Under the pieces are notes generated by a model. The model saw nothing but the letters and a program-made list of their open reading frames with translations. It was not told the DNA's origin and searched no databases. This document shows positions 43,449-64,000 of a stretch of DNA of 64,000 nt, one piece after another. Source of the DNA: Prorocentrum cordatum (taxonomy: Eukaryota); assembly GCA_963575745.1 (NCBI GenBank), contig CAUYUJ010000111.1:1-64000 (forward strand), in the 5' to 3' direction. Position numbers and translations under genes: made by a program. How positions within the stretch are numbered: the first letter of the stretch is position 1; each line of letters starts with the position of its first letter.

Positions 43449-44750
43449 AACAAAGGTTGACGGTTTACCGCCGGCGCCCAGTTGGCAAGACAAATCTCGA
43501 CGGAACTTTTGCTGACTTTTGGTCGGTTGAAAATTTTGTTCTCGAAATTCAACAATCGTTTGAGCTCTAGTACTTTTTCCCGTGATATTCGATCTTATCC
43601 CCGCTCGCCATCTTGATCTCAGCTCGATCGGGTGAATATGACTATCGAAAAGCACTGTGGCGGGATCGGCCGGTTTGAGTCATCTTGATACGCGCTGACG
43701 GGTTTCTGAACATAACTCGAGCTCTAGAACAGCTACAGAGCTGGTAAGCACGGCTAATCGATGTAGAATGATCAGGCGCGTTCGCCTGTTGAATCGAGAG
43801 GTCTGAACTCGGTCTGTTAGCCGAGCTAGGTCCTCAAACTTATTCGTATTATTCGAGTCCTCTTGACAGGAACTCTTGGTTTTCTGTACTCAACTCGAGC
43901 TGTAGGACAGCTACAGAGCTGATGACTCGTAGAGCTTCCCTGAGAGCGCAGCGGCGAAGCTTAAGAGTAATTCGAAAACGCTGGCAGGCTAGTTGGCTCG
44001 AAAAATCTCGACTGAACTTTTCACAACTTTGGCTCGGTTGAAAATTATGTTCTCGAAATTCAGCAACTCGTTTGAGCTCTTGTATTTTTTCCCGTGATAT
44101 TCGATCTTATTCCCGCTCGCCATCTTGATCTCAGCTCGATCGGGTGGGTATTACTATCGAAAAGCGTCATGGCGGGATCGGCCGTTTCGAGTCATCTTGA
44201 TACGCGCTGTCGATTTTATCAAGATAACTCGAGCTTCAGGACAGCTACAGAGCTGGTGAGCACAGCTAATCGATGCAGAATGATCAGGCGCGTTCGCTTG
44301 TTGAAACCAGAGGTCTGAACTCGGTCTGCTGGCCGAGCTAGGTCCGCAAACCTATTCGTATTATTCGAGTCATCTTGACATAAACTCTCGGTTTTCTGTT
44401 CTTAACTCGAGCTGCAGGACAGCTACGTAGCTGATACGTACAGAATCCGATTCCGAATCATCAGTGGCCGTTGTCTGTTGAATCCAGAGCTCTGAACTCG
44501 GTCTGCTGCCCCATCTAGAATCGCGAAACTATTCGTATTGTTTGAGTCGCTTGCGAGATGCTGTCGGTTCTCTGCACTTAACTCGGGCTGTAGGGGGGCT
44601 GCATGGCTGGTAATCACTGGAATCGATTCGGAGACATCAGGCGCGTTCGCCTGCGGAATCTAGAGCTCCGAACTCGGTCTGTTGCCCGAACTAGGTCCGC
44701 GAAGCTATTCGTATTGTTCGAGTCATCCTGAGAGGTGCTGTCGGTTTTCT
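43449..44750. repeat. Satellite block
   Basis: Head module plus ~177 bp monomers. Confidence 0.85.
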
Positions 44751-47026
44751 GGGGCAAGCATGAGAATGCTTGTGTGGGAGTTCTTGACGTTGAGTGCGCC
44801 TTCGACAACATCACGATACCGATGGCAGATAGAGCGATGCATGATATCAACGTTGACCCAGAGCTGGCGTATGCGATCCTGGAGCAGAATGCAGATGTAA
44901 CAGCGACGTTTCGATTTGGTCCAGTGGAGTCAGAGAGCTTACCGTGGAGCTCATGTATTAAAACGGGATCCCTTGAGGGCCCTGATATCTGGAATATTGT
45001 TACGATTGCTTGTCTGGGCAAGGTTCTCTTGGACTGGGAACGAAAAGGTATAGGCCTGAAGCTGTCACATGAGGCTGCTTCTATTGCTATCTCACACTTC
45101 ATTTGGGCGGATAACTTTGTTTTGATTGCTGACTCCAGACCAGCACTGAGGGAGATGATCTGGCAGCTCACTGTACCACTGCATGCATGGGGACTCAGAT
45201 GGAAGCCTACCTCGCTTGAGTATATGGATGTTGGGGCGCTGAAAAATGTGTTCGACCCGCTGGTGGTCACCTTGACACCACCAGGATTGGAGAGACTGGG
45301 AAGTTCCAGCTCAGTTGTGTCGCCATCTGAAGCTGTCAACCAGACCATTGTGGAACTCAAGCAGGTTGATGAGATCATCGTCTTGGGCACAAAGCTGAAT
45401 AGAACACTGGATGATTATCACGATATTCGATACAGACTGCAAAAAGGCATCACAGCATTTTGGCGAGACCGACGATATTATCAGAGTATGGTCATTCCTT
45501 GGCGACGTAAAATCAAAAGATATGATGCAAGAGTGAGAGTTCAAATCCTTTATGGAGTTGAGGGTTCATCTTCTGATATTGGCGTACTGAGACTTCTACA
45601 CAAAGAGGAGGGTAAGATGCTCTCTCGTATGTGCTGGCGTCAGAAGCGCAATGGAGAGAGTTTTGCGACTTTCATGACACGTATGTTTCGACGTGGGCGC
45701 TTGATGCTACACAAGGAAGGGAAACCGTCCTTGGTCCAGCTGTACCTGCACAGGCAGTTCATGTGGGCCAAGGACGTTGCCACGGAGTGCTTTGAGAATA
45801 TGGCAGGCTCGCTGCAGGACTTGTGTATCTCTGCAACGGGAGGGTCTCAGCTGATTGGGAAGAGCATGGAGGAGGAGATGATGGAGATGGAGGTGGAGGA
45901 GTCAAACACGAGGAAGAGGAAGAGTGCTCTCATCAGGGAGGTAAAACGAGCTCGTGAAGGGGAGTCCCTGAACACGTCCAGGTTGCAGGTTGGGGCCCAG
46001 GAGAAGCAGGTTCGTTTTCCAGGGAGAAAGCTCCGTTTTCGTGAAGGGGAGCATGTTGACCGAGGTGCTCAGAGTAGGCTTCTCATGCTGCATGCAGGTT
46101 TTGAATGGACTAATAGGCGGGATGACTTTATTGCGACCCTGGACACACAGAGCGCACGGGAGGTGACGAGAGCCAGGGGACAGTCTACTAATCTTCTGGG
46201 TATGTGTCCGTGGGCCAGAGTGTTCGAAGAGGTGGCGGGGAAGTACTGGATCGACGGTATTGCTTGGGATGAGGCTAGCTGGATATTCTTTGTGAGGACT
46301 GTCTTGAAGGACGCTCCTGAGATGTTGAACCTTTGCGTATTGAAAGACCCCGTGCCCTGGAAGGAATCGGAGGAGGAGGAGATGACTAAGAAGCAGGAGG
46401 ACCCAGATAAGTTGGCCAAGCGTCTCATTGCTATATTCCAGGACCATACTGAATTTGAGTTCGTGCCAGGGAAGATCTCTGTGGAACTGATGGGGGATTC
46501 GCAATGTGTGATCAGGTGGTTGGAGGGCTTGAGTAGTATCACTAATAGAAAGTATGCTAACTGTGTGATGTGGGCGCAGGACACTACAAACGACCTAGCC
46601 GACAGATGCGGACTACGAGCTGCCAATTTAGGACGGAATGTGTGGAAATGGGTATATAGGGAGGGTAATACTCGTGCCGATGAATTAACGTGGGCCGCGC
46701 GGAGAGGTGAATGTTTCGAACATTATGATACTTGTTTTCTTCAGGACGTGAAAGATTGTAAAGTTGTGATCTCGGGGATCAAAGGAGGCTTTGATGGTGG
46801 GAGATCGTGTCTTGGTGTAGGCTGTGGCTGGTATCTGGATTGTCATGTGTATAGTGCTCTCCCCTCCTCTTCTTACTATAATCTGACTGGCTGGCGCCAG
46901 AATGTAGGTCTCAAAAGCTTCCTCCTCCCAGCACAATGCACTATCACAGAGGCTGAGCTTGAAGCTGCCCGAGAGCTCCTTTTAGGAGTGGTGCATGTCC
47001 TGAGTTTGTCAGGATATCCCCTGTAG
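44750..47026 (+). pseudogene. Truncated ORF2: RT (C-terminal part) plus permuted RNase H
   Basis: LDVECAFD, IKTGSLEGP, FIWADN, VLG; GDSQCVIRW, YREGNTRADEL, GFDGG, TITEAELEAA. Confidence 0.88.
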
Positions 47027-47085
47027 GACTGGGTCTGGGGCTCCTAAGGAGCTTAACCCTGCCAGGACCCGCCCAGAAGCGCCAG
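44751..47085 (+). mobile_element. 5'-truncated non-LTR retrotransposon (family C)
   Basis: Begins inside RT (WGK..LDVECAFD). The 3' end abuts AAGAAAGGTTCACGGTTTACCGCCGG at 47086. No TSD, and the left arm of the target is missing. Confidence 0.88.
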
Positions 47086-50000
47086 AAGAAAGGTTCACGG
47101 TTTACCGCCGGCGCCCAGTATTTAGAGAACCCGATTCAGAATCATCAGTTGCGTTTGTCTGTCGAATCCAGAGCTCTGAACTCGGTATGCTGCCCGATCT
47201 AGAATCGCGAAGCTATTCGTATTGGTCGAGTTATCTTGAGAAGCGCTCTCGGTTTCCTTGACTCAACTCGCGCTGAGGCTACAGTGCTGGTGGTCGCAGG
47301 AATCGATTTGAAGACATCAGGCGCGTCTGCCTGGCGAATCCAGAGCTCGGAACTCGGTAGCTTAAGAGTATTCCGCGGCGCAGGAAGCTAGTTGGCAAGA
47401 ACAATCTCGACGGAACTTTTGGTGACTTTTGGTCGGTTGAAAATTTTGTTCTCGAAATTCAACAAGTCGTTTGAGCTCTAGTATTTTTTCCGTGATATTC
47501 GATCTTTTTCCCGCTCGCCATCTTGATCTCAGCTCGATCGGGTGAATATTACTATCGAAAAGCACTGTGGCGGGATCGGCCGGTTTGCGTCATCTTGATA
47601 CGCGCTGACGGTTTTCTGAACATAACTCGAGCTTTAGGACTGCTAAAGATCTGATAAGCACAGCTAATCGATATAGAATGATTAGGCGCGTTCGCCCGTT
47701 GAATCCAGAGGTCTGAACTCGGTCTGTTAGCCGAGCTAGGTCCGCAAACCTATTTGTATTATTCGAGTCATCTTGACAGAAACTCTCGGTTTTCTGTGCT
47801 CAACTCGAGCTGTAGGACAGCTACAGAGCTGATATTTACAGAAACCGATTCAGAATCATCAGTTGCATTTGTCTGTCGAATCCAGAGCTCTGAACTCGGT
47901 CTGCTGCCCGATCTAGAATCGCGAAACTATTCGTATTGGTCGAGTCACCTTGAGAAGTGCTCTCGGTTTTCTTCACTGAACTCGCTGAGCTGGCTACAGT
48001 GCTGGTGGTCACAGGAATCGATTTGAAGACATCAGGCGCGTCCACCTGTCGAATCCAAAGCTCGGAACTCGGTCTGCTGCCCGAATTAGGCATGCGAAAC
48101 TACTGTATTTGTTCGAGTCATCCTGAGAGGTGCTGTCGGTTTTCTGCACTTAACTTGGGCTGTAGGGGCGCTGCAGGGCTGGTAATGACAGGAGTCGATT
48201 CGCAGACATCAGACGCGTCCGTCTCTCGCATTCAGAGGTTAAAAACTATTCACTATGAGTGGGAATGTTGGTAGGTGCTGTCGGTTTTCTCAACTTAAGT
48301 CGAGCTAGGAAGCTCTACGAGTCTCCCGGCGGTAACCAAGGTTGACGGTTTACCGCCGGCGCCCAGTTCCGGCGCGGGGTGGAGCTAGTAACTCGTAGAG
48401 CTTCCCTTAGCAAGTTATTGCTGGAAGCTTAAGAGTAATTCCGGGGCGCTGGAGAGCTAGTAACTCGTAGAGCTTCCCTTAGCAAGTTATTGCTGGAAGC
48501 TAAGAGTAATTCCGGCGCGCTGGAGAGCTAGTTGGCCAGAAAAATCTCGACGGAACTTTTGCTGACTTTTGGTCGGTTGAAAATTTTGTTCTCGAAATTC
48601 AACCATTCGTTAGAGCTCTAGTATTTTTTCCCGTGATATTCGATCTTATTCCCGCTCGCCATCTCGATCTCAGCTCGATCGGGTGAATATTACTATCGAA
48701 AAGCACTGTGGCGGGATCGGCCGGTTCGAGTCATCTTGATACGCGCTGACGGTTTTCTGAACATAACTCGAGCTTCAGGACAGCTACAGAGCTGGCAAGC
48801 ACAGCTAATCGATGTAGAATGATCAGGCGCGTTCGCCTGTTGAATCCAGAGGTCTGAACTCGGTCTGTTAGCCGAGCTAGGTCCGCAAACCTATTCGTAT
48901 TATTCGAGTAATCTTGACATAAACTCTTGGTTTTCTGTTCTTAACTCGAGCTGTAGGACAGCTACAGAGCTGATAGTTACAGTAACCGATTCAGAATCAT
49001 CAGTTGCGTTTGTCTGTCGAATCCAGAGCTCTGAACTCGGTCTGCTGTCCGATCTAGAATCGCGAAACTATTCGTATTGGTCGAGTCATCTTGAGAAGTG
49101 CTCTCGGTTTTCTGCACTTAACTCGCGCTGACGGGGGCCACAGTGCTGGTGGTCACAGGAATCGATTAGAAGACATCAGGCGCGTCCGCCTTTCGCGGAA
49201 CTCGGTCTGCTGCCGAAATTAGGTCTGCGAAACTACTGTATTGTTCGAGTCATCCTGAGAGGTGCTGTCGGTTTTCTGCATTAACTTGGGCTGTAGGGGG
49301 GTTGCAGGGCTGCTAGTCACTGGAATCGATTCGGAGACATCTGACGCGTCCGCCTGTCGCATTCAGAGGTCAAAAAATGTTCATTATAATTCGGAGTGTT
49401 AATAGGTGCTGTCGGTTTTCTCAACTTAAGTCGAGCTAGGAAGCTCTACGAGTCTCCCGGCGGTAACCAAGGTTGACGGTTTACCGCCGGCGCCCAGTTG
49501 GCAAGAAAAATCTCGACGGACCTTTTGCTGACTTTTGGTCGGTTGAAAATTTTGTTCTCGAAATTCAACAATTCGTTTGAGCTCTAGTATTTTTTCCCGT
49601 GATATTCGATCTTATTCCCGCTCGCCATCTTGATCTCAGCTCGATCGGGTACCTTTTACTGTCAAAAAGCAGGCAGGCGGGATCGGCCGTTTCAAGTCAT
49701 CTTGACACGCGATGACGGTTACCTGAACATAACTCGAGCTTTAGCACAGCTACAGAGCTGGTAAGCACAGCTAATCGATTCAGAATGATCAGGCGCGTTC
49801 GCCTGTTGAATCTAGAGGTCTGAACTCGGTCTTCTAGCCGAGCTAGGTCCGCAAACCTATTCGTATTATTCGAGTCATCTTGACAGACGCTCTCGGTTTT
49901 CTGTACTTAACTCGAGCTACAGGACAGCTACAGAGCTGATACTTACAGAAACCGATTCAGAATCATCAGTCGCATTTGTCTGCTGAATCCAGAGCTCTGA

Positions 50001-51413
50001 ACTCGGTCTGCTGCCCGATCTAGAATCGCGAAACTTTTCGTATTGTTCGAGTCATCTTGAAAGTGCTCTCGGTTTTCTGCACTGAACTCGAGCTGGGGGG
50101 TGGCTACAGTGCTGGTGGTCACAGGGATCGATTTGAAGACATCAGGCGCGTCCGCCTGTCGAATCCAGAGCTCGGAAGTCGGTCTGCTGCCCGAACTAGG
50201 TCCGCGAAACTATTGTATTGTTCGAGTCATCCTGAGAGGTGCTTTCGGTTTTCTGCACTTAACTCGGGCTGTAGGGGGGCTGCAGGGCTGCTGGTGATCA
50301 CAGGAGTCGATTCGCAGGCATCAGACGCGTCCGCCTGTCGAATCCAGAGCTCGGAACTCGGTCTGCTGCCCGAACTAGGTCCGCGAAACTATTGGTTTTG
50401 TTAGAGTCATCTTGAGAGGTGCTGTCGATTTACGCACGTAACTCGGGCTGTAGGAGAGCTACAGAGCTCGCAAATAAGACAATCCAAAAGCATCGGGGGC
50501 GTTCGGCTGTTGCATTGAGAGGTCTGAAAACATTATATATTGTCAGGAAGCTCTACGAGTCCCCCGGCGGTAAGGAAGGTTGACGGTTTACCGCCGGCGC
50601 CCAGTTAGTCGACCCGGCCAGAAAAGAAGATGTGATAACTTTGGGTTGGTTTTGCGAATATTTGAAAGATATTTGACAATTCATTTTAAGAAAGCAGATT
50701 TCTACTCCGAGCATTAGTATCTTATCTTCATTCTGCGAGCAGCTCAGCTCTCTCGAGAGAATTTTATTATCCAAACATTTGGAGGAACCGACGTCACGTT
50801 GACGCCCACAAATAATGCAAATACGATGTTTTTCTAGAAATACTCTGAGAAGCGATCTGCTTTGAAGCTGAGCATTCTTACGCGTGCAAGGAGCTCTACG
50901 AGGTTCCCGGCGGTGGCCAGGTTGACGGTTCACCGCCGGCGCCAGTACCTCGTAAAGCTCTTCGCCATCGATGAGCTAGAGGAATTCCGGCGCGGGGTGG
51001 AGCTAGTTGGCCCACCCGGCCGAGGCGGACAATGTGACAACTTTTGGGTGGTTTTGCGAATATTTGAAAGATATTTGATAATCAATTTTGAGAAACCAGA
51101 TTTTTCGCACCTGTAGTGGGTTTTGCCGCGTCTGCCAGTAAAATTTTCAGGTCTGTAGGTGCAGTATTACTATCAAAAGACTTGGGGGAACCGACGTTCA
51201 GTAAAAGCAGAAAAACGTGTTTTTTTGAGTTTTTTCTTCCTCGCTCCAGAAGCTTTCTCTCCGTGTTCCGACGATCGCCGTGCAGGACTAGAGCTCTACG
51301 AGGTTCCCGGCGGTAGCCAGGTTGACGGGTACCGCCGGTTTCAGTTCCCCGCAGAAGCTCCGGCGAGCCGGACACGTGTCCGGGAGAGCTGCCGGCAGAG
51401 CTCTACGAGGTTC
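47086..51413. repeat. Satellite block (three to four higher-order units)
   Basis: Monomer anchors at 48728, 48906 and 49083 (spacing 178, 177); stem-loops at 48326, 49458, 50564, 50907 and 51307. Confidence 0.9.
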
Positions 51414-51434
51414 CCGTAGCCATTTTGGCTCAAG
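51414..51434 (+). other. Retroposed dinoflagellate spliced leader (DinoSL)
   Basis: CCGTAGCCATTTTGGCTCAAG matches the 21 invariant nt of DCCGUAGCCAUUUUGGCUCAAG and is not followed by GT. Confidence 0.95.
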
Positions 51435-51978
51435 AACGTCTCGGCTCAAGAACGTCTCTGCCTGGGGAACCTCCAGACGTTCTAGCGAGCCCTGGCCTCG
51501 GGGTGTGAGCCCGGCTTGCCTGGGTTCCCTCGAGGTTCTTGTCTGCTTACTCTACATCTCTTGTATTGTACGCTGTATTCTTCTTCGTGGTATTGAGATT
51601 CTCTGGTGTGCTGCACTGCTGTTCATTGTCTGTCTGCATTCTTTACCTCTTATTGAACGAGTGGTAGTTACTTGTGTGTGGATCGTTGTTGACATCACGT
51701 CGTACGACAGTCCTGAGGCTCAGCTGGCATTGAGGAGAGAGATAGGACTCGAGCATTGGGGTGAAAGTACTGAGGAGTGGTTTCGGCGTCAAAGGAATTT
51801 GGACATACCCACAGAAGACTACCAGGACGAGAGAGTCAACTTTGATTACCTTGAGGAATACCAGCCGTGGGATCAGAAAGATCTGCAGGCACTGGAGGCA
51901 GCATCAAACAAACGTCAACGTGAGGACGATAGGAGCTGGTTAGATAAATACGGATTGAACGGTAATATTCTTGAAGAT

Positions 51979-53082
51979 ATGACTCATGTTGCAGCAGCGG
52001 CGGATGCCGCGATGACTGGGGATGGTGAGACTCGATCCAAACGTGCACGTGGAACAGAGATTGAGGAGGAGAGGAAAGTGATGTTAGAAAAGGAGAAGGA
52101 TCCATTCAAACAGATGATGATGAAGCATGTTTGGAAAACGGAGGATGCCCATGAGGATCTCATCCATGTTGTTCAATCGACGAAGACGGACATCAAAAGA
52201 GTTGATGACACACTCAAGTTGCATACGGAGAGAATGGACAAATCAGATGCACGGACAGATATTTTGGAGAAACAGGTTAAGCAAATTTTGGCTGGATCTC
52301 CTGCAGCTTCGGTTTCGACTAGTGTGGGCCCTGGTGGCTCCTCTGGTGGTGGTGGAGGTTCGATCCCTCGCGTGCAACAGGAGCGATCGAGCCAGTTCAC
52401 ACCAACTTATCTCGAGCTGAAAGGGTGGGTTACGGATTGGTCGAATCAAGTAAATCGGGGAAATCAAATGATACCCTGGGCAGATGCGGCACAGTTAATA
52501 TCAAATATGATTGGGACACTTCAGGGGGAGGAAAGGAATGCTTACGATAAAGATAAAACTGAACGTTTAAACGGAGGAAGATATATGTACGGCAGTGTGA
52601 AGGTCGGTTTCAAAGAAGGGACACCACGGGACACTCTTTGGAGAATAAAGAAATGGATGGATATGGTCTGTAAGGAACCCGCCGACCGCATTGCCCCGCC
52701 CCCAGGTTATACGTATCCAGATGCCGATGTTCTCACTCATGATATGGACACGCCAATCGATCCCAGAAAGATTCGTACGTTAGTGGAGTGTGCACCCTGG
52801 AAGCGTGATCATGTGAAAGCGGTTGCTCGTTTCTGTGGGACTTGGCGTAGTATGACCTCGGCTCATGTTCAAATCGAGATCCGTGGGGAGGTGGGGCCAC
52901 CGAGAAGTCAGATTTGGACTCAAGCTGTTCCGAATTTCCGACCCGTCTGTTTTGCGACGTATACGAATACCACAGGGGCTTGGGTTCTTCATGCTGATGC
53001 ATGGGCTCGTATTGTTTCTTTTTATCCGGCGCTGAAGGTTCCCATGAATGATATACTTCAGGAAGTGAATCGTAGGCAGTGA
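51979..53082 (+). CDS. ORF1 of family D (coiled-coil plus conserved globular domain)
   Basis: First in-frame ATG at 51979; the frame is open further upstream. FTPTYLELKGWVTDW and VECAPWK are shared with ORF1 of family E. Confidence 0.8.
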   Translation: MTHVAAAADAAMTGDGETRSKRARGTEIEEERKVMLEKEKDPFKQMMMKHVWKTEDAHEDLIHVVQSTKTDIKRVDDTLKLHTERMDKSDARTDILEKQVKQILAGSPAASVSTSVGPGGSSGGGGGSIPRVQQERSSQFTPTYLELKGWVTDWSNQVNRGNQMIPWADAAQLISNMIGTLQGEERNAYDKDKTERLNGGRYMYGSVKVGFKEGTPRDTLWRIKKWMDMVCKEPADRIAPPPGYTYPDADVLTHDMDTPIDPRKIRTLVECAPWKRDHVKAVARFCGTWRSMTSAHVQIEIRGEVGPPRSQIWTQAVPNFRPVCFATYTNTTGAWVLHADAWARIVSFYPALKVPMNDILQEVNRRQ

Positions 53083-56000
53083 CGTTTGCGGCGCCTCGTC
53101 CGAGGCATACGCTTGGCGAGCTGGAACCTGAACAAAGCAGGGGAGGCTCATTTCAAATGTGCTGAGATTCTCCATCATATGAGGGCATGTGGTGGGCTCT
53201 TTGCATGTCAGGAAACTCAATACCTAGTGCACGGGGAATTTGAACGCTTGGGGTGGCGCATCAAAACTAGTTCGTGTAGTAAGGCAGCTCTCATCTTCGA
53301 CAGATCTTGGGCGGCTGCCGTCCGTATGTTTTTCACTTGTTTCACGAGGTTCGTTATCGGTGTCTTTGGGTCAGAGAAGTCACCACTCATTATTGTGTCA
53401 GCGTGTTTGCCAGACCCTCATGTGGAGGATTGTGTAGAGATTGCTGCGGAGGTATATGAGCAGATCGGTCGTGCTCGCAATGTTCTCCGCACTAAGTTTC
53501 CGCAGGCCAGCTTTTGTGTTCTGCTAGATGCAAACGTGGAGATTCCGCCTGGATGCAGATTTACGTATAATGGGGAGGAGTATGAGGCTACTGGAAAGGA
53601 AGGTACTCGTACGGACAGAAGGTGGGAGAGAGGAGGAGACGGTACACAGCAGATTGAAAGGAGGAGTCGGAGGAGGAGGCTGAAGGAGCTGCTGTTAGAG
53701 TTCATGGAATCGCATGGACTGAAGGCCGCCAACACTTTCTGTACTAGGAGGCATACCTGGGAGTCGTGGGGGGAGAACAAGTTTCTGACTTCGAAGAGGG
53801 TCCTGGATTACCTAATGGTCCCTCACCGTTGGGAGTTCTCGGATCTGGAGGTGAAGTGGTGTTTCAAGAGGGGTGGGAAGAAGCAGTTCAGTAGATTATC
53901 CGATCACGCAATCATCACGGCGAGTTTCACTGACCCTGGGAACGTGATTGTTCGTCGCCCTGACCCCCAGCCTGGTCAGAAGTCTAGGCCGTCTCTGGTC
54001 GGATACAAGTGTTCGACTTGGGCTGATGAGCATCAGGCTCGACAGCATGTGGATTCGTATCTAGGCGGTGCTGCCTTTTCAAGGTGTCCGTCTGTGACCT
54101 GTCCACAGGGTCTGGAGAGTACTATGCTGGAGGCGTACTTGTCACCGACGGTGGACTACTCCACCACGGGTGCGAGAAGACCGAGAGAGCCGTCCAGGCC
54201 GGTGCAGCTCACAAGAGCGGAGGAGGAGGTTAAGATGTGTCCGAAGGAGGAAGTGGAGAGGTTGAGGAGGTTAAAGAATGAGGCTAATCGTCTACGCAGA
54301 GGTTATCGACGTGATATGATTATGTGCAGATGTCCCCCAACAAAACGAAAGGTCAGATATACTATCAAACATTTAGTGGTGGATGGGAGGGAGACGGAGG
54401 ACCGTGAGGAGTGGAAGGAGGAGCTCGACAAGTTCGTTCGTTGCAAGGTGTCGTCCGAAGAGATACGCAATTCCACCAACAGTATGATGGAGGAGATCAG
54501 GATGAGGGCTGTACATGAGATACGTTCCACATCAGTTGTGGGAATTAGTATGGCGCTGCTTCTCAGAGCACGAGCTCGGCTGAAGACCCAGAGGGCTACT
54601 GGGCCAGACGGGATACCGTGCGAGATTCTAAGGAGCTTGCCGTGGTGTGCTCTCAGAGCGATCCAGAAGTTGTTCGATAAAATCATCAAGCTCACGATTC
54701 CGTATCCTCAGTCGTGGCGTGAGATTCTCGTCTCTTTTATGCCAAAAACTCCAGGGATCACTAAGTTAAAAGACGGACGTTTGCTGTGTATGCAGAATGC
54801 TGTTTCGAGATGGTTCAGTTCCTGTGTTGTTCTCTTGGTTGAGGGTCATATTGAAAGAAAAGGAGTGTTTCGTCATATTGGGTTGTATGGTTTCCAGGAA
54901 CACCGTCGTACACACGAAATCACGGCTAGCATCAAACACATAGGTCAACATGCTGCACAATGGGGAAAAGGGGAAACGGCACACTTGGCGAACGCTGATG
55001 TCCTTCAGGCGTTCGATCACTGCACGGTGGCCAATGTCAGGCGCGGGTTGGATCATGCGGATGTACCCCTTTACCTACAGTATGCTCTACTTGACCCCTT
55101 GTGCGAATGTGTAGGCACTGTCTATTATGATGGGATTGAGGTGGTGGAGGTTAGGTGGGACAAATGTATTCGGACGGGAGGGCCCGAGGGACCGTTGGCC
55201 TTCAATCTCATCGTTGCTGCTATGTGGGGCTCCACGATTCGAGAATGGGACGTACTAGGACTAGGTTATCGTATTGAGTATGTGACTGGCTCGACTAGCT
55301 GTGTTTCGATTATTAATCATTTCCTTTGGGCTGACAACTGTTATGTATTGGCTCGGAGTCGAGAGGAACTCACACGCATGTTACACGGTCTAACTACACA
55401 GTTACATGATTATGGAATGAGATGGAAGGAATCCAGCCTATTGTATATGGTGTTCGGGGTCGAGCCGCCGCGAGATGTGGAAGGGGAATTACTTCACACT
55501 GCTGATCTTGTTCTCTCGGTGGGGTCGGAGGCGTCTGGAGTGTATCGATTTAGAAGGACGACGGAGATGGAGGTGCTGGGGGCTTATATTTGTTCTGAAC
55601 TACATGTGAATGAACATCATGATTTGGACGCTCGTATTGACTGTGCTCGCAGGGCCTTCTGGGGGCAGGCGACCTTCTTCCGCTCCACGGCCATCCCGTT
55701 GAAAGATAAATATGAGAGGTATGCTCAGAGAGTTCAGAGTATTGTGCTCTACGCGGCGGAAGGATGCACGGTCGATTCAAGTTCATTGAGCGCCCTTCAT
55801 ATCTTTGAGGGCAAGTGCCTGTCTGTAATGTCTCGCTGTGTACGGAGGGAGGGGGAAAGTTACCAGGAATGGAATACGAGGAGGTATGAACGTGCGAGAC
55901 AGAAATTTCATGATGCTCACTTTGTGGGCATTGTACAGAAGTTTCTCAGAGTGCATTGGATGTGGGCAATTGACATCCAGGACTTTGCACGCAGGCTGAT

Positions 56001-57036
56001 CACAGATCGGGGGGAGTTGGAGGCGAACTCGATGAGAGCTTGGAGAGATTCTCGTTTCTCATTTCTGGCGTTTGGCCGACTGTGGGATAGAATGAGGACG
56101 GATTCAAGTGAGGCTCTCAGATGTTGGGGAAACTGGAAGGAGGCCAGCTCTATGAAAAGGCATCGGGGGGGACAAGAGAGCGTCGGACTCCGTCCGTGGT
56201 ATTATTCATTGGAATCGTTTTACGGTTTATCCTGGTGGGAGTTCTTTGCTGGAAGTTTTGAGCATTTCATGGATTTCGCTACTAATGTTTGTTCTAGTAC
56301 TATGTTGAAGTACTTCCAAAAGAAGTGTAAAGGTTTGGCGTCCTCAGGGGTGCCTGTATTCTTGAACTTGGATGAGGATGGAGGGGTTCATATCGGTCAG
56401 GATCGGGAGGATACACCAGCATATAGGGATCGCCTCAGCAAACGTATTGCGTTGCATAATATGCGTTGTACACAGTGGGACCTCGATACAGATGGGATAC
56501 CACTGGACATCCAAGGGGACTCACTGCTTGTTATTAACTGGCTCTGCGGGAAATGGAAAGTATTAGCTCAGGTATATCAGAAAAGGGTGGATACTCTGAT
56601 TAATAAGTTGGACGAAATGCAGGAAACTTACTTGGTGAGGCCTCCAGAGGCCGGCCGTGACTTCTTCTCTCATTCGTTTCGGGAATGGAACCAGAAAGCT
56701 GACTTACTGACCCATCAGGCCCGTCAGGGCCATGTGTACGCCGATTTCGTTTACCTCAACGACTTTGAATCTCAGTGTTATATTCCTTGCCTTATCAAAG
56801 CCGGCTTTGATGGGGGAGTTTGTAGCCGCGGAAGTGCCTGTGGTGCATGGATACAGATTGGTCTGCGAAACAAGTATATCTTCTCGCGGACCGACATCAT
56901 TTTCAAGGATGTGTATCTTGCGGCTTGGTGTCTACCACCGAGCGCCACTGTTGCAGATACGGAACTATCGGCGGCGGAGCGCATATGCGAGTTGCTCCCA
57001 CAGGTTGTGCAGACCTTCTTTGATCATTCGCAGTGA
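53083..57036 (+). CDS. ORF2 of family D: APE endonuclease, reverse transcriptase and permuted RNase H
   Basis: APE motifs SWNL, CQET, LDAN, NTF..HTW, LDY, SDH. RT motifs ATGPDGIP, ADVLQAFD, IRTGGPEGP, WADN, VLG. RNase H motifs at 56500-56990. Confidence 0.95.
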   Translation, partial: RLRRLVRGIRLASWNLNKAGEAHFKCAEILHHMRACGGLFACQETQYLVHGEFERLGWRIKTSSCSKAALIFDRSWAAAVRMFFTCFTRFVIGVFGSEKSPLIIVSACLPDPHVEDCVEIAAEVYEQIGRARNVLRTKFPQASFCVLLDANVEIPPGCRFTYNGEEYEATGKEGTRTDRRWERGGDGTQQIERRSRRRRLKELLLEFMESHGLKAANTFCTRRHTWESWGENKFLTSKRVLDYLMVPHRWEFSDLEVKWCFKRGGKKQFSRLSDHAIITASFTDPGNVIVRRPDPQPGQKSRPSLVGYKCSTWADEHQARQHVDSYLGGAAFSRCPSVTCPQGLESTMLEAYLSPTVDYSTTGARRPREPSRPVQLTRAEEEVKMCPKEEVERLRRLKNEANRLRRGYRRDMIMCRCPPTKRKVRYTIKHLVVDGRETEDREEWKEELDKFVRCKVSSEEIRNSTNSMMEEIRMRAVHEIRSTSVVGISMALLLRARARLKTQRATGPDGIPCEILRSLPWCALRAIQKLFDKIIKLTIPYPQSWREILVSFMPKTPGITKLKDGRLLCMQNAVSRWFSSCVVLLVEGHIERKGVFRHIGLYGFQEHRRTHEITASIKHIGQHAAQWGKGETAHLANADVLQAFDHCTVANVRRGLDHADVPLYLQYALLDPLCECVGTVYYDGIEVVEVRWDKCIRTGGPEGPLAFNLIVAAMWGSTIREWDVLGLGYRIEYVTGSTSCVSIINHFLWADNCYVLARSREELTRMLHGLTTQLHDYGMRWKESSLLYMVFGVEPPRDVEGELLHTADLVLSVGSEASGVYRFRRTTEMEVLGAYICSELHVNEHHDLDARIDCARRAFWGQATFFRSTAIPLKDKYERYAQRVQSIVLYAAEGCTVDSSSLSALHIFEGKCLSVMSRCVRREGESYQEWNTRRYERARQKFHDAHFVGIVQKFLRVHWMWAIDIQDFARRLITDRGELEANSMRAWRDSRFSFLAFGRLWDRMRTDSSEALRCWGNWKEASSMKRHRGGQESVGLRPWYYSLESFYGLSWWEFFAGSFEHFMDFATNVCSSTMLKYFQKKCKGLASSGVPVFLNLDEDGGVHIGQDREDTPAYRDRLSKRIALHNMRCTQWDLDTDGIPLDIQGDSLLVINWLCGKWKVLAQVYQKRVDTLINKLDEMQETYLVRPPEAGRDFFSHSFREWNQKADLLTHQARQGHVYADFVYLNDFESQCYIPCLIKAGFDGGVCSRGSACGAWIQIGLRNKYIFSRTDIIFKDVYLAAWCLPPSATVADTELSAAERICELLPQVVQTFFDHSQ

Positions 57037-57294
57037 TTTGACACACATTGTTTCTTCTTTTCCGTGTCTTGTATATTCCTGCAGCTTCGCTGCTCACTGA
57101 CTTCCTCGATTATCTGTGTGTTCTTTGCGTTTGATTGTGTCATTGCGGCATGTGATTCTCTTTATTCCTTCAGCTTCGCTGTGTGGTATAAGAGCTGACT
57201 GCTTGCGTGATGAATAAGAAGCTCTGTTTTGCCTGAGACTTTGTTGGACCTGGCCTCAGTGGCCAAGACGGTCCCAGCAAAGACGCAAAAAAAA

Positions 57295-58355
57295 GACCAG
57301 GTTAACGGTTCACCGCCGGCGCCAGTAACTCGTAGAGCGTTCCTTAGCAAGTTATTGCTGGAAGCTTAAGAGTAATTCTTGCGCGCTGGAGAGCTAGTTG
57401 GCAACGCAATTTCGACGGACCTTTTGGTGACTTTCCGTCGGTCGAAAATTTGGTTCTCGAAATTCAACAATTCGTTAGAGCTCTAGTATTTTTTCCCGTG
57501 ATATTCGATCTTATTTCCGCTCGCCATCTAGATCTCAGCTCGATCGGGTACCTTTTACTGCCAAAAAGCACTCCGGCGGGATCGCCCGTTTCGGGTCATC
57601 TTAATAGGCGCTGACGGTTTCCTCAAGATAACTCGAGCTTCAGAACAGCTACAGAGCTGGTAAGCACAGCTAATCGACGCAGAATGATCAGGCGCGTTCG
57701 CCTGTTGAACTCAGAGGTCTGAACTCGGTCTGCTAGCCGAGCTGGGTTCGCAAACCTATTCGTATTATTCAAGTCATCTTTGACAGACGCTCTCAGTTTT
57801 CAGTACTTAACTCGAGCGACAGGACAGCTACAGAGCTGATACGCACAGAATCTGATTCAGAATCATCAGTGGCCGTTGTCTGTTGAATTCAGAGCTCTGA
57901 ACTCGGTCTGCTGCCCGATCTAGAATCGCGAAACTATTGGTATTGTTCGAATCATCTTGAGAGATGCTGTCGCTTCTCTGTTCTTAACTCGGGCTGTGGG
58001 GGCTGCATGGCTGGTTATCATTGGAATCGATTGAATACATCAGGCGCGTCCGCCTTGCGAATCCAGAGCTCTGAATTCTGTCTGCTGCGAAGTAGCTCCG
58101 CGAAACTATTCGTATTGTTCGAGTCATCCTAAGAGGTGCTGTCGGTTTCCTGCACTCAACTGGGCTGTAGGGGGGCTGCAGGGCTGGTTATTACAGGATC
58201 AATTCAGAGGGATCAGACGGCCTGTCGCATGGAGAGGTCTGAACTCGGTCTCATACTCGAGCTAGGTTTGCCAAACTATTCATTTTTTTTCTGTGTATTT
58301 TTTTCGAGAATGTTGTCAGGAAGCTCTACGAGTCCCCGGCGGTAACAAAGGTTGA
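57295..58355. repeat. One satellite higher-order unit between elements D and E
   Basis: Head module, 4-5 monomers, then the left half of a stem-loop. Confidence 0.88.
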
Positions 58356-58869
58356 GGAAGCGGAGTTTACCTCCCGCTCTCCCTCGGTCTTGTCCCGTCG
58401 GGGGGCTCACTCGAGCTGCATCGTGTAGTCAGGCAGCCTGCCCCTGGCCCGCCGCGCGGGGGGCGCGTGGCGATCGGGCCACTTCGGCGACTTCGGCTGC
58501 CTGCACTTGTTTGCGGCATTTGTTTGCTTCCCGAGGCAAGCAGGCCGCCTGCACTTGTTTGCGGCATTTTGCCGCGTCGAGCTGGACGGGACGAGCCAGA
58601 GTCAATCGATCGATTTGGACCGCTGGGGAGCCAACTTCGGACATTGGGAGTGGGAGTATCTTGCCAGACAGGTTGGTAGAGCTCGACACGACGATAAGGA
58701 TTCTCTAGTCGACATACCATCTGGGCCACCTGATCTCTCTCCCACTTTACCTCACCATCCTGTTGCCCCATATAACTTTCATCAGTTGAGTGCACATCTC
58801 AAACGTACTCGAGAAGATCGATCGTTCTGTGCGAAGTGGAATATCCCTTGTAATATCTCAGACGGCAAG

Positions 58870-59916
58870 ATGGCTGCCTCATCAGCTGCTGCGGTCCCCG
58901 AGGTTTTCGCTATGGACGCCACTGATATGCCCGTTCCAGGAGCCAAGGAGGAGGAGGTCCCAGAGGGAAAACGGGTCAAAATTCAGACGGTTGAAGGCCT
59001 CGAGGAGGCCATGACAAAGGGGATGGACAAGATCACGACGCTTGTTGCATCTCTGGGAGGTAAGATGACGGAGGGCTTCCAATCAACACATCGAAGCATC
59101 ACGGATCTCGGCACCCAGCTCAATGCTCGTGTTGATTCGGTGGAGAAAAATGTACAGCAGGCGATGACGGACATAGATGCTATTACTAAGAAGGTTGAGG
59201 ATCAGAGGCTCCAGATAATCCAGCTCCAGCAGGCTCCTGCAGGTGGGGCCCCCAGAGCAGGCACCTCTACGACAGCGTCCTCGGCGGAAACTCGGCAGTC
59301 AGTGCAGAATTTCACCCCATCGTTCGTCGAGCTCAAGGGATGGGTGACGGACTGGAGGGATGCAGAGAAGCGTCAGGAGGAGATGTTATCACAGCAGGCG
59401 TTGAATTCACTGCTGAATGAGGTCCTGGCTGGAGAATGGTTCAGTGGTGTGAAGGAGTTTCTGGACCTGAACCAATCCAAGAGGTTCAACACAGGTAGAG
59501 AGGCGTGGGGGTATTCGCGTGCTCGGCTCTATTTCCAGAATGGGGTTACCAGTGACCAGCTGTGGGATCTTCGTCGTCGACTCGTTGCCGCGATCGCCGA
59601 CAACAAACTCCAGCACGCTCCCAGGGCCCTCAAGGTCCACGTGGAGGCCCCCCCCTGGAAGAAGCCCCATCTGGATGCCGCTGGGATCTTTCAGGCCAAG
59701 TTCAAGAGTTTCAAGAAGCATCATTCGAATCTCAGGGCTGAGACGGGACCACCGATTACGTTCATGTGGGGCTCCAGTGACCACTTACCACCTCCAGGGA
59801 AGATTGTGGCCAAGTTCTCTCTGCAGAATGGCTGGGAGATCACTCGTGCAATGAATCAGCTTGAGCCAGGGATCAACATTGATGAGTTGCGAGCGAGGAT
59901 TTCCAGTACGAACTAG
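58870..59916 (+). CDS. ORF1 of family E
   Basis: ATG at 58870; heptad-like region LNARVDSVEKNVQQAMTDIDAITKKVED; FTPSFVELKGWVTDW; VEAPPWK. Confidence 0.82.
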   Translation: MAASSAAAVPEVFAMDATDMPVPGAKEEEVPEGKRVKIQTVEGLEEAMTKGMDKITTLVASLGGKMTEGFQSTHRSITDLGTQLNARVDSVEKNVQQAMTDIDAITKKVEDQRLQIIQLQQAPAGGAPRAGTSTTASSAETRQSVQNFTPSFVELKGWVTDWRDAEKRQEEMLSQQALNSLLNEVLAGEWFSGVKEFLDLNQSKRFNTGREAWGYSRARLYFQNGVTSDQLWDLRRRLVAAIADNKLQHAPRALKVHVEAPPWKKPHLDAAGIFQAKFKSFKKHHSNLRAETGPPITFMWGSSDHLPPPGKIVAKFSLQNGWEITRAMNQLEPGINIDELRARISSTN

Positions 59917-62900
59917 AGGTGCCACGACACCATTGCGTCATGGAATGTGCGTCGGGCAGGTGCAGAGAACGGCCATGACATAATTAATTCACTACGTCGT
60001 TTAGATGTGGGACTCGCGGGGTTGTGCGAGTGTCAGTTCCTTTCAGTTCGTGATCTCAGCATGCGAGGTTACACAATTTTTCGGAGTACTTGTCGGAAGG
60101 CTGCGGTGATTATGTCTAAGTCTTGGAGAGACTCGCTCAGAGCCACATATCGTGGCAAAGGTTTTGTCATTTGTAGTTATTCTAGTGTTACGGTTATTGT
60201 TGCATATATGCCACATGAGAGTATCAATGCCCTTACGGAAGAACAGTATGAGCATGATGTGTATGAGCAGATATTGTTTGATATATCCCAAGTGCTTCGC
60301 ACACATAGGTCTAAGTTCCCGAAGCAGCCGCAGGACCTGGTCTTCTTGACAGATGCTAACGTCGAACTCGAGCCAGATTCGGAGGTCAACGGCTTTAGAG
60401 TTACTGGATCAGGGCTTCTGGAGGCGTCTGGGATTGCTGGGGAGTCTACGGAGATTGATACTGGGATGGAGGAGGGAGCGGATGACGGCAACCCGTATAT
60501 GACTCAAACAAAACGTGGTGCACGCAAAGCCAGACCTCATAGGCTTGTCTCGGGCTTCGAAATTCGACGGGCGTCTAGGTTGCAATCGATGAGGAGGGCC
60601 CTACTGGACTTCTGCGGGCTCTGGGGCATCAGGATGGAGAACACATTCGGGCAGAGGAGGGTTACTTTCAAATCAGGTACGGGGGTGGAGAAGGTGCTCG
60701 ACTATGTTGGTGTCAGCCGTCGTTTACACAGGCAGGAGCTCACCGTTGGCTGGATGCTGCCTTCGGAAGTCGGCCACGCCTGGACGGAGCACCCTTGCAG
60801 CAGATGCGAGCGTGCGCTGTCTGACCACGCCTGCATAGTTGTTCGCTTGTCTTGTGCACCGTCTGCGAAGAGACGGACCCAGCCTGCTCGAAAATTCATC
60901 CACTTGCAACCGGTGTCACAGCTGGAGTTTGCGAAGAACATGGACGATCGGGGCAGTCGTTGCCGTGCTCTGTGCCAGGAAAATGCTGACCCAGAGGATC
61001 GACAGGAGATGTTGGATACGCTGGGACCTGACCTCATAAAGGCCGCCGAGGAGACCCCCCAGAAAGATATCAATCCCAGGAATAATGTGCCAAAGAAATC
61101 CGAGATCCACTGGGCCGCCCAGGCAAGTAAACGTGAAGCTCTTCGTCGGGGGGATAGAGAGGAGGCTAAACGGTGCTCAAAGATTGTGAGGAGAGAAAGA
61201 AGGAGGCTAGAGGCAAGAGTACAGAGGTGGAGGACGGAAATGAACACGAGGAGGAGGAGGAGGGCCAAGACGGAGACGTTGATCCTTGCCAACGGGATGG
61301 AGTCTCAGAACCGCGAGGAGTGGGGGGACGAGATATTGGGGCACATGAAGTCTAAGGTGGAGGACCCCGAGGCCAGAGAGGTGACCCTGCGTGAGCTTCA
61401 GTCGCTGCGTGGTCTATGTTCGGGAAGCGGATCCTCAGAGGTGTTCTCGATGTCGCTCCTGCTGCGGGCGAGGGCGAAGCTGTCCACGGGAAAGGCCCCA
61501 GGTCCCGACAACGTGACTGTCACGATGTTGAAACAGCTCTCGTGGGCATCTGTGCGACGTGTTCTGGTGAGCTTCCAAGGTGTGTATTCCAGAAGGTTAT
61601 GTTGTCCCGACAGTTGGCGTCAACTAGCTGCCACACTCATGCCAAAAGAAATGGACATACAACATTTGACAGATACACGTATGCTATGTCTACAGTCGTG
61701 TCTTATGAAATGGTACATGACATGTATTGTGATGTTGATTGAGAAGAGGATTGAGGAGCACCGACACTATGTATGCCTGTACGGATTCAGATCGGGACGC
61801 AAAACATCGGAAATCACCAGCGTTGCCAAGAGGCTCAGCCAGCACTCCGCTGTCTGGGGCAAAGGAGACAGTTTGTGGCTTGCCAATCTTGATATCTTAC
61901 AAGCTTTCGATAATGTTACTCCGTGCCTCGCCATGCGCTGTCTTCGTGCTCTTGACATACCTGCTGATCTCATTGTGGCGTTGATTGAACCCATGATGGA
62001 TAATCAGTGCGTGGCCAGCTTCGAGGGCATCGAGGCATCGTCAGCGGTCTATTGGGACAAATCTATTCGAACGGGAGGAGTAGAGGGACCTATGATTTTT
62101 CTGGCAGTTTCTATTGTACTCTGGAGAGATGTTATCGACAGATGGAGGCAAGAAACGCAGTACGGCATCAAATTGGAAAATGATGAGCGCATGTTCAATG
62201 GTGAGCGTATGACCCACAGTTTCTGGGCAGATAATCTTTTGTTGTATGCGAAGACCCGCACTGACCTTGAGTTGATGGTGCGTGACATGAGTATCCCCCT
62301 GATGAATGCAGGAATGACCTGGAAGCCGAAATCTTTGATGTATATTTACTTTGGTGCGCCGCCTGGCATCCCGCCGTCCCCTGAGCAGGATATCCGTGTG
62401 CTGGTGCCGTCTAGTGACGCCGCTCTTGGGACCCGAGAAGTGGTCCTACCGCGTGTTCAAGCGTTTGAGATCCTGGGAGCCACTCTGGAGGAGACCTGGA
62501 AGGACCACTCGGACTCAGAGGCCATGCTCCAGAAAGCCCAGAGGATGTTCTTTGGGGAAATCGCGTATTACCGCTGTTCTGGGATTGGCTTGGCTGAAAG
62601 ATTTACTCGCTATCAAGCTAAAGTGATTGCTGCATTATTATTCAACTGTGAGGGCAGAACGCCCCAGGTATACGCAAGCGGAGAACTGAAGGCTGGTCTG
62701 AGTTTCAACGTAGGCGATACAAAGCGGGGCGACAGAGTTTTGCTGGACTTGGATTCCGAAGTGCGGTGCAGATATGGATATTTCGTTGTTGGGATTGGGC
62801 TAAGGATGTCTCAGTTGCTGCAAGTATTCGTATGAGGAGATACACAACACACACAGAGGAGGAGGAGGGAGAGACGGTACCAAATCGGCGTCAGAGGAAA

Positions 62901-64000
62901 ACTCGGGCGATGGCGGCGGCGGCGACTTCTCAAACATATCATGTATCTCAGATATCCCAGATGTCGAGTGGCTGTCGCCGGCGTACACCAGATGATCAGC
63001 CTGCCATACCTGAGGAGTCGGACATGTCACGTGAATGGATGATATCTAGGCTGGCCATGTTACATGGAAGGGGGAAGTGGACGGAACATCGTGACACATG
63101 TATTCTAGCAATGCCTGTAAAAGATAGGAAGCAGCTGACACGCATGAACATAGGCGGCCGCCCCCGTGGACATACTGCGTGGGACTGGTGCTTGTGCGAT
63201 CTCTTTGGTTGTGAGTGGTACCTCTCATTCGACAGTTCCGCTGGGTCCCGTGAGAAATACTGCAAGCATTTGCTGACTGTGATTGGTATGCAACACTTGT
63301 TCGACTTGTTTGTTCTACCCAGGCCGCCTGGTGTGAGACATGTGAAGGCAGAGGAGGAGGAGGAGAGTGAGATGAATGAGAGGATGAGCAAACGTATTGC
63401 CGCTAATTTTGAGAATGAAACGGAGTGGAGGTGTGAGAATATTGAGCGTCTTGGGATGGAGATCTTGGGAGATAGTAAGACTGTTGTAAACTGGATGTGT
63501 GGTGAGTGGCAGATTCGCAACAAGCAGTATGTACGACTGGTGGGAACACTACAAAATACGGTATCGATGCTGTCTGGATGGGGACTGACCTCACCTGCAT
63601 CGGGACAGAATCTGTATAAGCATTTCTTTCGTGAGGGTAATGAGCGTGCGGATAAATTGTCGTGGGAGGCCAGAGGTGGCCAAACTATTACTCGCTGGTT
63701 TGCATATGATAAGTTCCTCAGTACTCGTAAGACTGCTCTCCGTGGTGCATTCGATGGGGGTGTCAGTAATGAAGGATGTGGAGGTGGGTGGTGGCTTCAG
63801 ATTGGCGTTGTAGGTAGGGGTTCCAGCGTGCAGGTTGATTTTCCCATCTCCTCCTCCTCCTCCTCCTCCTCTTCCTCCTGCACCAGCTCGCACAGCTTCC
63901 ATTGGCACGATGTGGCCGAGGAGGCGATGAGCTTGCCTCCTGGTAGCACGGTAACCTGCTGTGAACTAGCTGCCTGCGCTGCCCTGACGAGAGCTGCTGC
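59917..64000 (+). pseudogene. ORF2 of family E (APE-RT-RNase H), broken by a deletion/frameshift near 62665
   Basis: SWNV, TDAN, LDY, SDH, KAPGPD, LDILQAFD, IRTGGVEGP, WADN. After 62668 homology continues in another frame (RKRRTEGWSEFQRRRY..GDSKTVVNW..FREGNERADKL..AFDGG..TVTCCELAA), open to the window end. Confidence 0.88.

Follow-up and report, generated by a model that had tools for sequence, protein, structure and literature searches.

The question raised by this locus is why a dinoflagellate retrotransposon should begin, in its DNA, with the spliced leader (SL) that is the hallmark of mature dinoflagellate mRNAs. The element, here called D (51414-57294, + strand, 5881 bp from the SL to a terminal tail of eight adenines, A8), lies in a stretch of 64,000 nucleotides (nt) from Prorocentrum cordatum (assembly GCA_963575745.1, contig CAUYUJ010000111.1, positions 1 to 64,000), hereafter referred to as the window. 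The structure of the insertion gives the first part of the answer: it extends from the SL to the A8, splits a palindrome in two, carries the SL as exon only, and has open reading frames (ORFs) behind a leader that is free of ATG. We consider D to be, with high probability, a young and intact APE-type non-long terminal repeat (non-LTR) retrotransposon, i.e., a long interspersed nuclear element (LINE), copied from a mature mRNA that had been SL trans-spliced and polyadenylated. As such, it combines two known kinds of sequence, the SL-tagged retrocopies and the site-specific APE-type LINEs.

The 5′ end of element D

The 21-nt core of the dinoflagellate SL (DinoSL), CCGTAGCCATTTTGGCTCAAG, is present in the window as a single exact copy with 0 mismatches at 51414-51434 (+), and no second site was found in these 64 kb at up to three mismatches, with 0.00 expected from 100 dinucleotide shuffles. 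An exact match, unique in the window and expected 0.00 times in the shuffles, was rejected as a product of chance. These 21 of the 22 nt of the leader, exon only, are the first sequence of the 5.9-kb insertion, so the earlier note on this DNA was right in stating that D starts with the DinoSL; the feature that it had drawn at 51411-51460 does contain the SL, but opens 3 nt ahead of the SL proper. In the leader sequence as given in the accessible part of PMC5585692, the first base of the DinoSL is variable (U, A, or G, written D). Since the base preceding CCG at the SL start is a C, the variable first base is in our copy either not represented or indistinguishable. The same CCG is shared with the target, which reads GAGGTTCCCGGCGG in intact copies, and the flank GAGGTTCCC is present at the SL junction; this 3-nt overlap constitutes a microhomology, which the earlier note had recognized correctly in kind but shortened to CC.

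Directly 3′ of the SL, D continues with AACG, whereas SL RNA genes found on four contigs of a wider collection (L006, L007, L012, and L018, described below) continue with GTAC, at which the intron of the SL RNA begins. Neither a tRNA, a small nuclear RNA (snRNA), nor any other RNA gene was detected in the window by Rfam and tRNA searches, Rfam giving no match at gathering score for the whole window and, for positions 50800-52000, no match even at E ≤ 1 and no ribozyme family. Because the SL is followed by AACG and not GTAC, and no RNA gene stands nearby, the SL in D is a spliced exon. The candidate identification of this sequence as an SL RNA gene was rejected, AACG not being a GT donor and the window holding no Rfam or tRNA gene.

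Behind the start of the SL, two exact copies of the 16-nt sequence GGCTCAAGAACGTCTC follow each other head to tail (51427-51442 and 51443-51458) and are still identical (0.07 occurrences expected; two matches in 0 of 100 shuffles). The perfect tandem duplication (51427-51458, +), found by exact search, is described by Tandem Repeats Finder as having a period of 16, 2.0 copies, and 100% matches. While a tandem duplicate at this place had been reported before, its proposed nature of a relict SL end did not hold. Relict SLs take the form of CCATTTTGGCTCAAG or CTCAAG directly behind the SL, according to the accessible text of PMC12014239, and no such tandem relict follows the SL of D, where the 16-nt duplication is the sole repeat. 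The duplicated unit consists of the last 8 nt of the SL and the first 8 nt of the D body and thus straddles the boundary between them; since it holds 8 nt of body, it is not a relict from re-splicing. It is a slippage product, from reverse transcription or from DNA replication, and one copy does not tell which.

Layout, target, and relatives of element D

The 5′ leader of D (51435-51978, +) comprises, together with the SL, 565 nt (51414-51978) that contain no ATG in any frame, a condition reached by none of 20,000 mononucleotide shuffles; the longest ATG-free gap of the window is 51032-51979. ORF1 (51979-53082, +) encodes 367 amino acids (aa) from its first in-frame ATG, in a frame that is open from 51322, and matches no Pfam family. 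It shares 24% identity over 353 aa (E = 1e-20) with ORF1 of a neighboring relative, element E, and because this homology begins about 27 codons ahead of the first ATG, a non-AUG start is possible. In both elements, ORF1 and ORF2 share a frame, with one stop between them (TGA at 53080-53082, +, in D; TAG at 59914-59916 in E), and the endonuclease motif ASWN follows 7-10 codons past the stop with no ATG (53080-53085 in D and 59914-59946 in E), which suggests stop read-through or re-initiation. ORF2 of D (53086-57036, +), which starts without an ATG, is translated without interruption into 1316 aa and is followed by a 3′ untranslated region (57037-57294, +) that ends in the A8 (57287-57294).

The N-terminal part of ORF2 (approximately aa 1-290, 53086-53955, +) is a putative APE-like endonuclease, recognized by a predicted-structure match. 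The model of aa 1-300 is of medium confidence (pLDDT 62.4, pTM 0.69), and its best fold matches in the PDB are APE1 and the endonucleases of LINE-1 and TRAS1 (E 1e-5 to 4e-5, probability 1.0, TM 0.46-0.61). E43, D148, D241, D273, and H274 are invariant in all four aligned sequences, and these are acidic and histidine positions expected of the APE fold. The reverse transcriptase follows in the stretch matched by Pfam RVT_1 (aa 600-781, 54883-55428, +), and a profile built from six family members matched human LINE-1 ORF2p at 9.2e-14, over the tower and the reverse transcriptase, and R2 at 3.7e-4. The conserved C-terminal region of ORF2 corresponds to no Pfam family in D or E, and in the third relative, element C, only to a weak RVT_3 match (RNase H-like, E = 0.14). 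Self-BLAST of 51301-57400 revealed neither terminal nor internal repeats. With its ORFs, reverse transcriptase, endonuclease fold, and A8, and without terminal repeats, D can be classified as an intact APE-type LINE. Its description in the earlier note as a full-length retrotransposon is in agreement with these results, the SL being the genuine 5′ terminus of an intact LINE with two ORFs and a poly(A) end, whose boundaries were taken from intact palindromes.

The target of D is a palindrome of about 70 nt (GAGCTCTACGAGGTTCCCGGCGGTGGCCAGGTTGACGGTTCACCGCCGGCGCCAGTACCTCGTAGAGCTC), linked to a 176-bp satellite. Its uninterrupted copies at 50891, 40221, and 7408 lack the SL and begin with the same left arm as that found at D (GAGCTCTACGAGGTTCCCG, 51398-51416, +), the last three bases of which, CCG, are common to the SL. 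The right part of the palindrome (GACCAGGTTAACGGTTCACCGCCGGCGCCAGTAACTCGTAGAGCG, 45 nt after A8 and GA) was placed at 57295-57339 (+) by comparison with the intact copies; the same comparison shows an insertion that starts within the shared CCG and extends to the A tail, at the cost of 5-7 bp of the loop. Since the palindrome is split by D and the intact copies have no SL, the SL came in with the element. The left arm has 11 matches in the window, all on the + strand, which is also the orientation of all three LINEs, and the intact palindrome at 50891-50962, taken as single-stranded DNA, has a folding energy of -21.7 kcal/mol (z = -4.7). As a separate observation, the palindromes present a second recurrent breakpoint, right after CCAGT on the 3′ side (2337, 39371, 42233, 48310, 49441, and 51291), beyond which the sequences vary by copy, the last arm resuming after 23-45 nt in two of the copies.

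Element C (44746-47090, end approximate, +) is a 5′-truncated relative of D, with 32% identity over 354 aa (3e-50); it is bordered on the 5′ side by the 176-bp satellite and on the 3′ side, directly, by the right half of a palindrome (AGAAGAA followed by AGGTTCACGGTTTACCGCCGG). Element E (58356-64000, +), which runs off the window, has an ORF2 with 30% identity to that of D over 938 aa (3e-97) and starts inside the palindrome loop (GGTTGA followed by GGAAGCGG), so that E and its flanking palindrome part occupy 58325-64000. Its 514-nt leader (58356-58869), which has no ATG in any frame and, when aligned, no meaningful similarity to the leader of D, precedes ORF1, the in-frame TAG, and an ORF2 whose reading frame changes near 62800. 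The 3′ junctions of C and D differ in position by 2-3 nt, and E has its 5′ junction about 7 nt further on, all of them in the palindrome loop and within about 15 nt. Three insertions in one window, belonging to three lineages with approximately 30% protein identity and sharing loop and orientation, point to a site-specific LINE family whose target is a hairpin loop. Beyond the window, a protein set clustered at 90% contains only three relatives of D ORF2 (55, 45, and 26% identity), and an exhaustive search of representatives gave 866 clusters at E ≤ 0.001, 204 at 1e-10, and 31 at 1e-30, mostly short fragments. The alignment of D ORF2, when run against a genome contig collection, produced 147 pattern matches and 0 confirmed relatives.

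The exact SL 21-mer, scanned against the genome contig collection, was found in 20 stretches at 19 loci (L001-L019), all of them filed under bacterial metagenome-assembled genomes (MAGs); by an arithmetic estimate, about 0.3 chance matches would be expected in a collection this large. Five of the 19 loci lie on four SL RNA-gene contigs (L006 and L019 on one contig), and L006, L007, L012, and L018 carry U1, U2, U4, U5, U6, SRP, U3, tRNA, or rRNA genes. These are plainly eukaryotic DNA mis-binned into bacterial genomes, and presumably dinoflagellate. L002 and L008, in long contigs, may be chance matches or something else; in L008 (209-kb contig), a lone 21-nt SL stands between two copies of the 19-nt TTTTGCTTGCAGGCGTGAG (6982-7040, minus strand of the locus), and no gene family was recognizable downstream of it. 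The other 12 loci (L001, L003, L004, L005, L009, L010, L011, and L013-L017) are of the retrocopy type, defined as an SL without the SL RNA-gene intron behind it.

Two of these 12 loci are LINE-like. In L013, the SL (117-137) adjoins a GA-rich microsatellite and is followed by an ORF1 that encodes a RanBP zinc finger; the ORF2 behind it matches Exo_endo_phos (3.8e-9) and RVT_1 (3.7e-11). L016 has the full 22-nt SL, a leader of 97-113 nt to the first ATGs, an ORF1, and an ORF2 with Exo_endo_phos (7.1e-8). No likeness of either locus to D was found by tblastn, and hhalign of L013 against D gave E = 0.087. The pattern thus recurs in two unrelated SL-headed LINE-like loci, which makes three unrelated LINE lineages with the same head, and all three SL-headed LINE copies (D, L013, and L016) have one SL and no relict. 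Among the further retrocopies, L011 has two classical SL relicts and L004, L010, and L015 have relict-like CCAT starts. As to their 3′ ends, the available sequence of the SL-headed retrocopies from MAG loci contains, downstream of the SL, neither a poly(A) run of at least 8 nor a return of the microsatellite. Several of the SL-headed retrocopies abut microsatellites (TG-rich in L001, (CAT)n in L004, (GA)n/(AGAGAGAC)n in L013, and (GACA)n in L015), and these flanks hint that the retrocopy enzyme prefers simple repeats. It was also observed that ORF2 of L013 (1361-7135) exceeds 1925 aa and has about 1190 aa without an assigned family ahead of its endonuclease domain.

Competing explanations and a proposed cycle

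A number of points weigh against the reading of D as an APE-type LINE copied from its own SL trans-spliced mRNA. We infer the trans-splicing of the D RNA from DNA only, and the assignment of the ORF2 N-terminus to the APE-like endonucleases, of medium confidence, depends on a model with a pLDDT of 62: by sequence, Pfam returned no match for the endonuclease at E ≤ 5, the N-terminal alignment profile reached PDB entries at chance level only (E of at least 0.18), and hhalign of the D N-terminus with the endonuclease ORF of L016 gave a probability of 0.9%. The RVT_1 match of D (E = 5e-6, 26.8 bits) is under the cut-off of 29.6 bits, which is exceeded by the relatives E (46.4 bits) and P0004 (33.2 bits). 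No target-site duplication was found at D; since target-primed reverse transcription is known to produce small deletions of the target, this is compatible with membership in the LINEs. D is present in a single copy, self-BLAST having found no second one in the window, and no SL or SL fragment is present at the 5′ junction of the apparently full-length E. With respect to the LINE-like loci elsewhere, ORF2 of L016 reaches the contig end before any reverse transcriptase, and the dinoflagellate origin of L013 and L016, filed as bacterial MAGs, is deduced from the SL and the sibling loci.

The lack of an SL in E, apparently complete and inserted in the same target, is also what favors the best surviving alternative, in which D is a dead-end processed copy and the family normally moves from unspliced or internally initiated RNA, with the SL outside its regular life cycle. 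In addition, D is the only SL bearer among the three family members in the window. However, C is 5′-truncated and for that reason uninformative, and E may itself be truncated there by a few tens of bases, which would also explain its missing SL. The ORFs of D are intact and its SL is perfect, two other LINE lineages have the same head, and LINE proteins prefer the RNA that encodes them, as established for L1. The SL that the earlier note had expected at other full-length copies is thus absent from E, in the same palindrome, but heads L013 and L016, in single copy and with no relict. On balance, we regard a dead-end copy as improbable.

A template-switch chimera, made when the reverse transcriptase jumped from an unspliced LINE RNA onto the SL RNA or onto the 5′ end of another mRNA, has a precedent in the U6/L1 chimeras, and the 16-nt duplication straddling the boundary between SL and body could be the trace of such slippage or jumping. 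Nevertheless, a switch onto the SL RNA would carry the intron between the exon and the element, and there is no GTAC at D, while a switch onto another mRNA must land exactly at the boundary of SL and body, which is the same boundary in all three loci (D, L013, and L016). We find this origin very unlikely. Still harder to sustain is the explanation of the SL as target DNA, with D inserted into, or next to, a gene or pseudogene for SL RNA in the manner of SLACS, CZAR, and NeSL-1. The D family is indeed site-specific, but the upstream flank of D is a palindrome left arm identical to the arms of copies without SL, the intact palindromes at 50891, 40221, and 7408 are likewise devoid of it, the SL of D is not followed by an SL intron, and, unlike real SL gene loci, the window has no snRNA or other RNA gene. 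Finally, an assembly or library artefact, in which cDNA-derived reads or a chimeric join put the SL before the element, is next to inconceivable, as the insertion is framed exactly by the halves of a single palindrome, now 5.9 kb apart, which is expected of a real insertion and not of a chimeric join.

For D as a copy of its own SL trans-spliced mRNA, we envisage a cycle in which a parent copy would be transcribed and the precursor RNA would receive the 22-nt DinoSL at an AG acceptor directly before AACGTCTC. Ribosomes would then scan from the capped SL across the AUG-free leader to ORF1, and ORF2 would be reached past the single in-frame stop by read-through or re-initiation. Within the palindrome loop, the endonuclease would nick the bottom strand; the short poly(A) would prime reverse transcription, which would proceed to within 1-4 nt of the cap, and the CCG microhomology would then connect the cDNA end with the upstream break, 5-7 bp of the loop being lost. 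Since the template would be an SL-capped mRNA, the daughter copy would carry the SL in its DNA, as SL-tagged retrogenes do. Its re-expression would need transcription from upstream or from the edge of the element and a new trans-splice, which would regenerate the original 5′ end if it used the terminal AG of the encoded SL.

This scheme can be extended in the direction suggested by the earlier note, although we propose the extension as a possibility that we ourselves hold to be doubtful. D, C, and E would represent a promoterless, site-specific LINE superfamily in a satellite-linked palindrome loop, transcribed as a read-through precursor of the satellite, from which SL trans-splicing would excise and cap the RNA, doing the job of the R2 ribozyme; the AG of the encoded SL would be re-used in each generation, leaving one SL and hence no relicts, and the same elements would be an enzyme source for thousands of SL-tagged retrogenes. 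The common + orientation and the absence of relicts in all three SL-headed LINEs fit read-through and AG re-use as circumstantial evidence, and would fit a master-copy model equally.

Known systems and further observations

Site-specific APE-type LINEs include R1, TRAS/SART, and Tx1, while Waldo, Mino, Kibi, and Dong are microsatellite-specific. Like all of these, the D family combines a putative APE-like endonuclease and a reverse transcriptase with insertion in one orientation at one short site in repetitive DNA; unlike them, its target is the loop of a palindrome of about 70 nt linked to a 176-bp satellite, and its ORF2 is very distant from that of any solved LINE. R2 and other co-transcribed LINEs cut their 5′ end from the host transcript by a hepatitis delta virus (HDV)-like ribozyme. 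D, if promoterless, would face the same definition of its 5′ end from a read-through transcript, but the tool proposed here is SL trans-splicing, which would also supply the cap, and D matches no ribozyme family. An SL sequence at the 5′ edge is shared with SLACS and CZAR of trypanosomes, CRE, and NeSL-1 of nematodes, LINEs that insert into SL RNA genes by a restriction-like endonuclease. In those elements the SL is an interrupted target, whereas in D it is a complete exon brought by the insertion, the target is a palindrome, and the predicted endonuclease is APE-like. With human LINE-1, D has in common the two ORFs, the endonuclease and reverse transcriptase in ORF2, and a 3′ terminus in poly(A), and L1 copies are likewise known to be joined at the 5′ side by microhomology; D differs in the lack of a target-site duplication, the in-frame stop between the ORFs, an ORF1 unrelated to known ORF1 families, and its site specificity.

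Dinoflagellate genomes contain thousands of SL-tagged gene copies. D resembles these DinoSL-tagged retrogenes as a genomic copy with an SL start and a poly(A) end, derived from a mature mRNA; it departs from them in that the mRNA copied is the retrotransposon's own, in the lack of a tandem relict, and in its site-specific insertion. The model of "recycled processed cDNAs" by which such retrogenes are explained reportedly goes back to Slamovits and Keeling (2008). DinoSL-tagged retrogenes and this model are summarized in the accessible parts of PMC3942190, PMC6050394, and PMC12014239. In the portions available, the enzyme responsible for the SL-tagged copies is considered unknown, with a leaning to LTR/copia elements (PMC5585692, PMC6050394), as is the type of element behind the SL retrogenes, for which Ty1/copia is favored (PMC6050394), and the Gene Ontology class "RNA-dependent DNA replication" is said to be enriched among genes with DinoSL relicts, which was taken as retrotransposons driving retroposition (PMC5585692). 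No statement that dinoflagellate LINE copies begin with an SL was found in the accessible parts of PMC12014239, PMC3229502, PMC3942190, PMC5585692, PMC8045281, PMC7245778, PMC11453091, PMC5890265, PMC9911081, PMC5776459, PMC6050394, PMC9651163, and 10.1101/783902. More generally, we found no description of SL-headed LINEs in the full-text literature, a search that did not extend to subscription journals or the original paper on relict SLs, so that a prior description is possible.

A copy of D with the leader at its start and poly(A) at its end suggests, as far as its sequence can tell, that LINE mRNAs are trans-spliced like those of the host. It also indicates that LINE-type reverse transcription can copy SL-capped RNA almost to the cap and leave the same signature as that of the retrogenes, and, together with L013 and L016, argues for a link between LINE enzymes and the SL-tagged gene copies. 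In practical terms, an SL at the 5′ edge offers a simple marker of full-length, recently made LINE copies, ORF2 of D is a candidate and apparently intact enzyme, and the palindrome loop provides a defined DNA target for the study of retroposition in dinoflagellates.

Two minor observations concern SL-like sequences elsewhere in the window. The sequence AGCCATTTTGGC at 8793-8808 (+) contains 12 nt of the SL in relict form, directly before an ATG in a G+C-rich gene region, and may be the relict SL of a retrogene. At 27934-27908 (-), CCGTAGCC-TCTGG-GGCTCAAG agrees with the SL at 16 of 21 positions, with the ATTTT core replaced, and stands at the end of a hexamer repeat of the GTAGCC type; it could be a degenerate SL or a coincidence.

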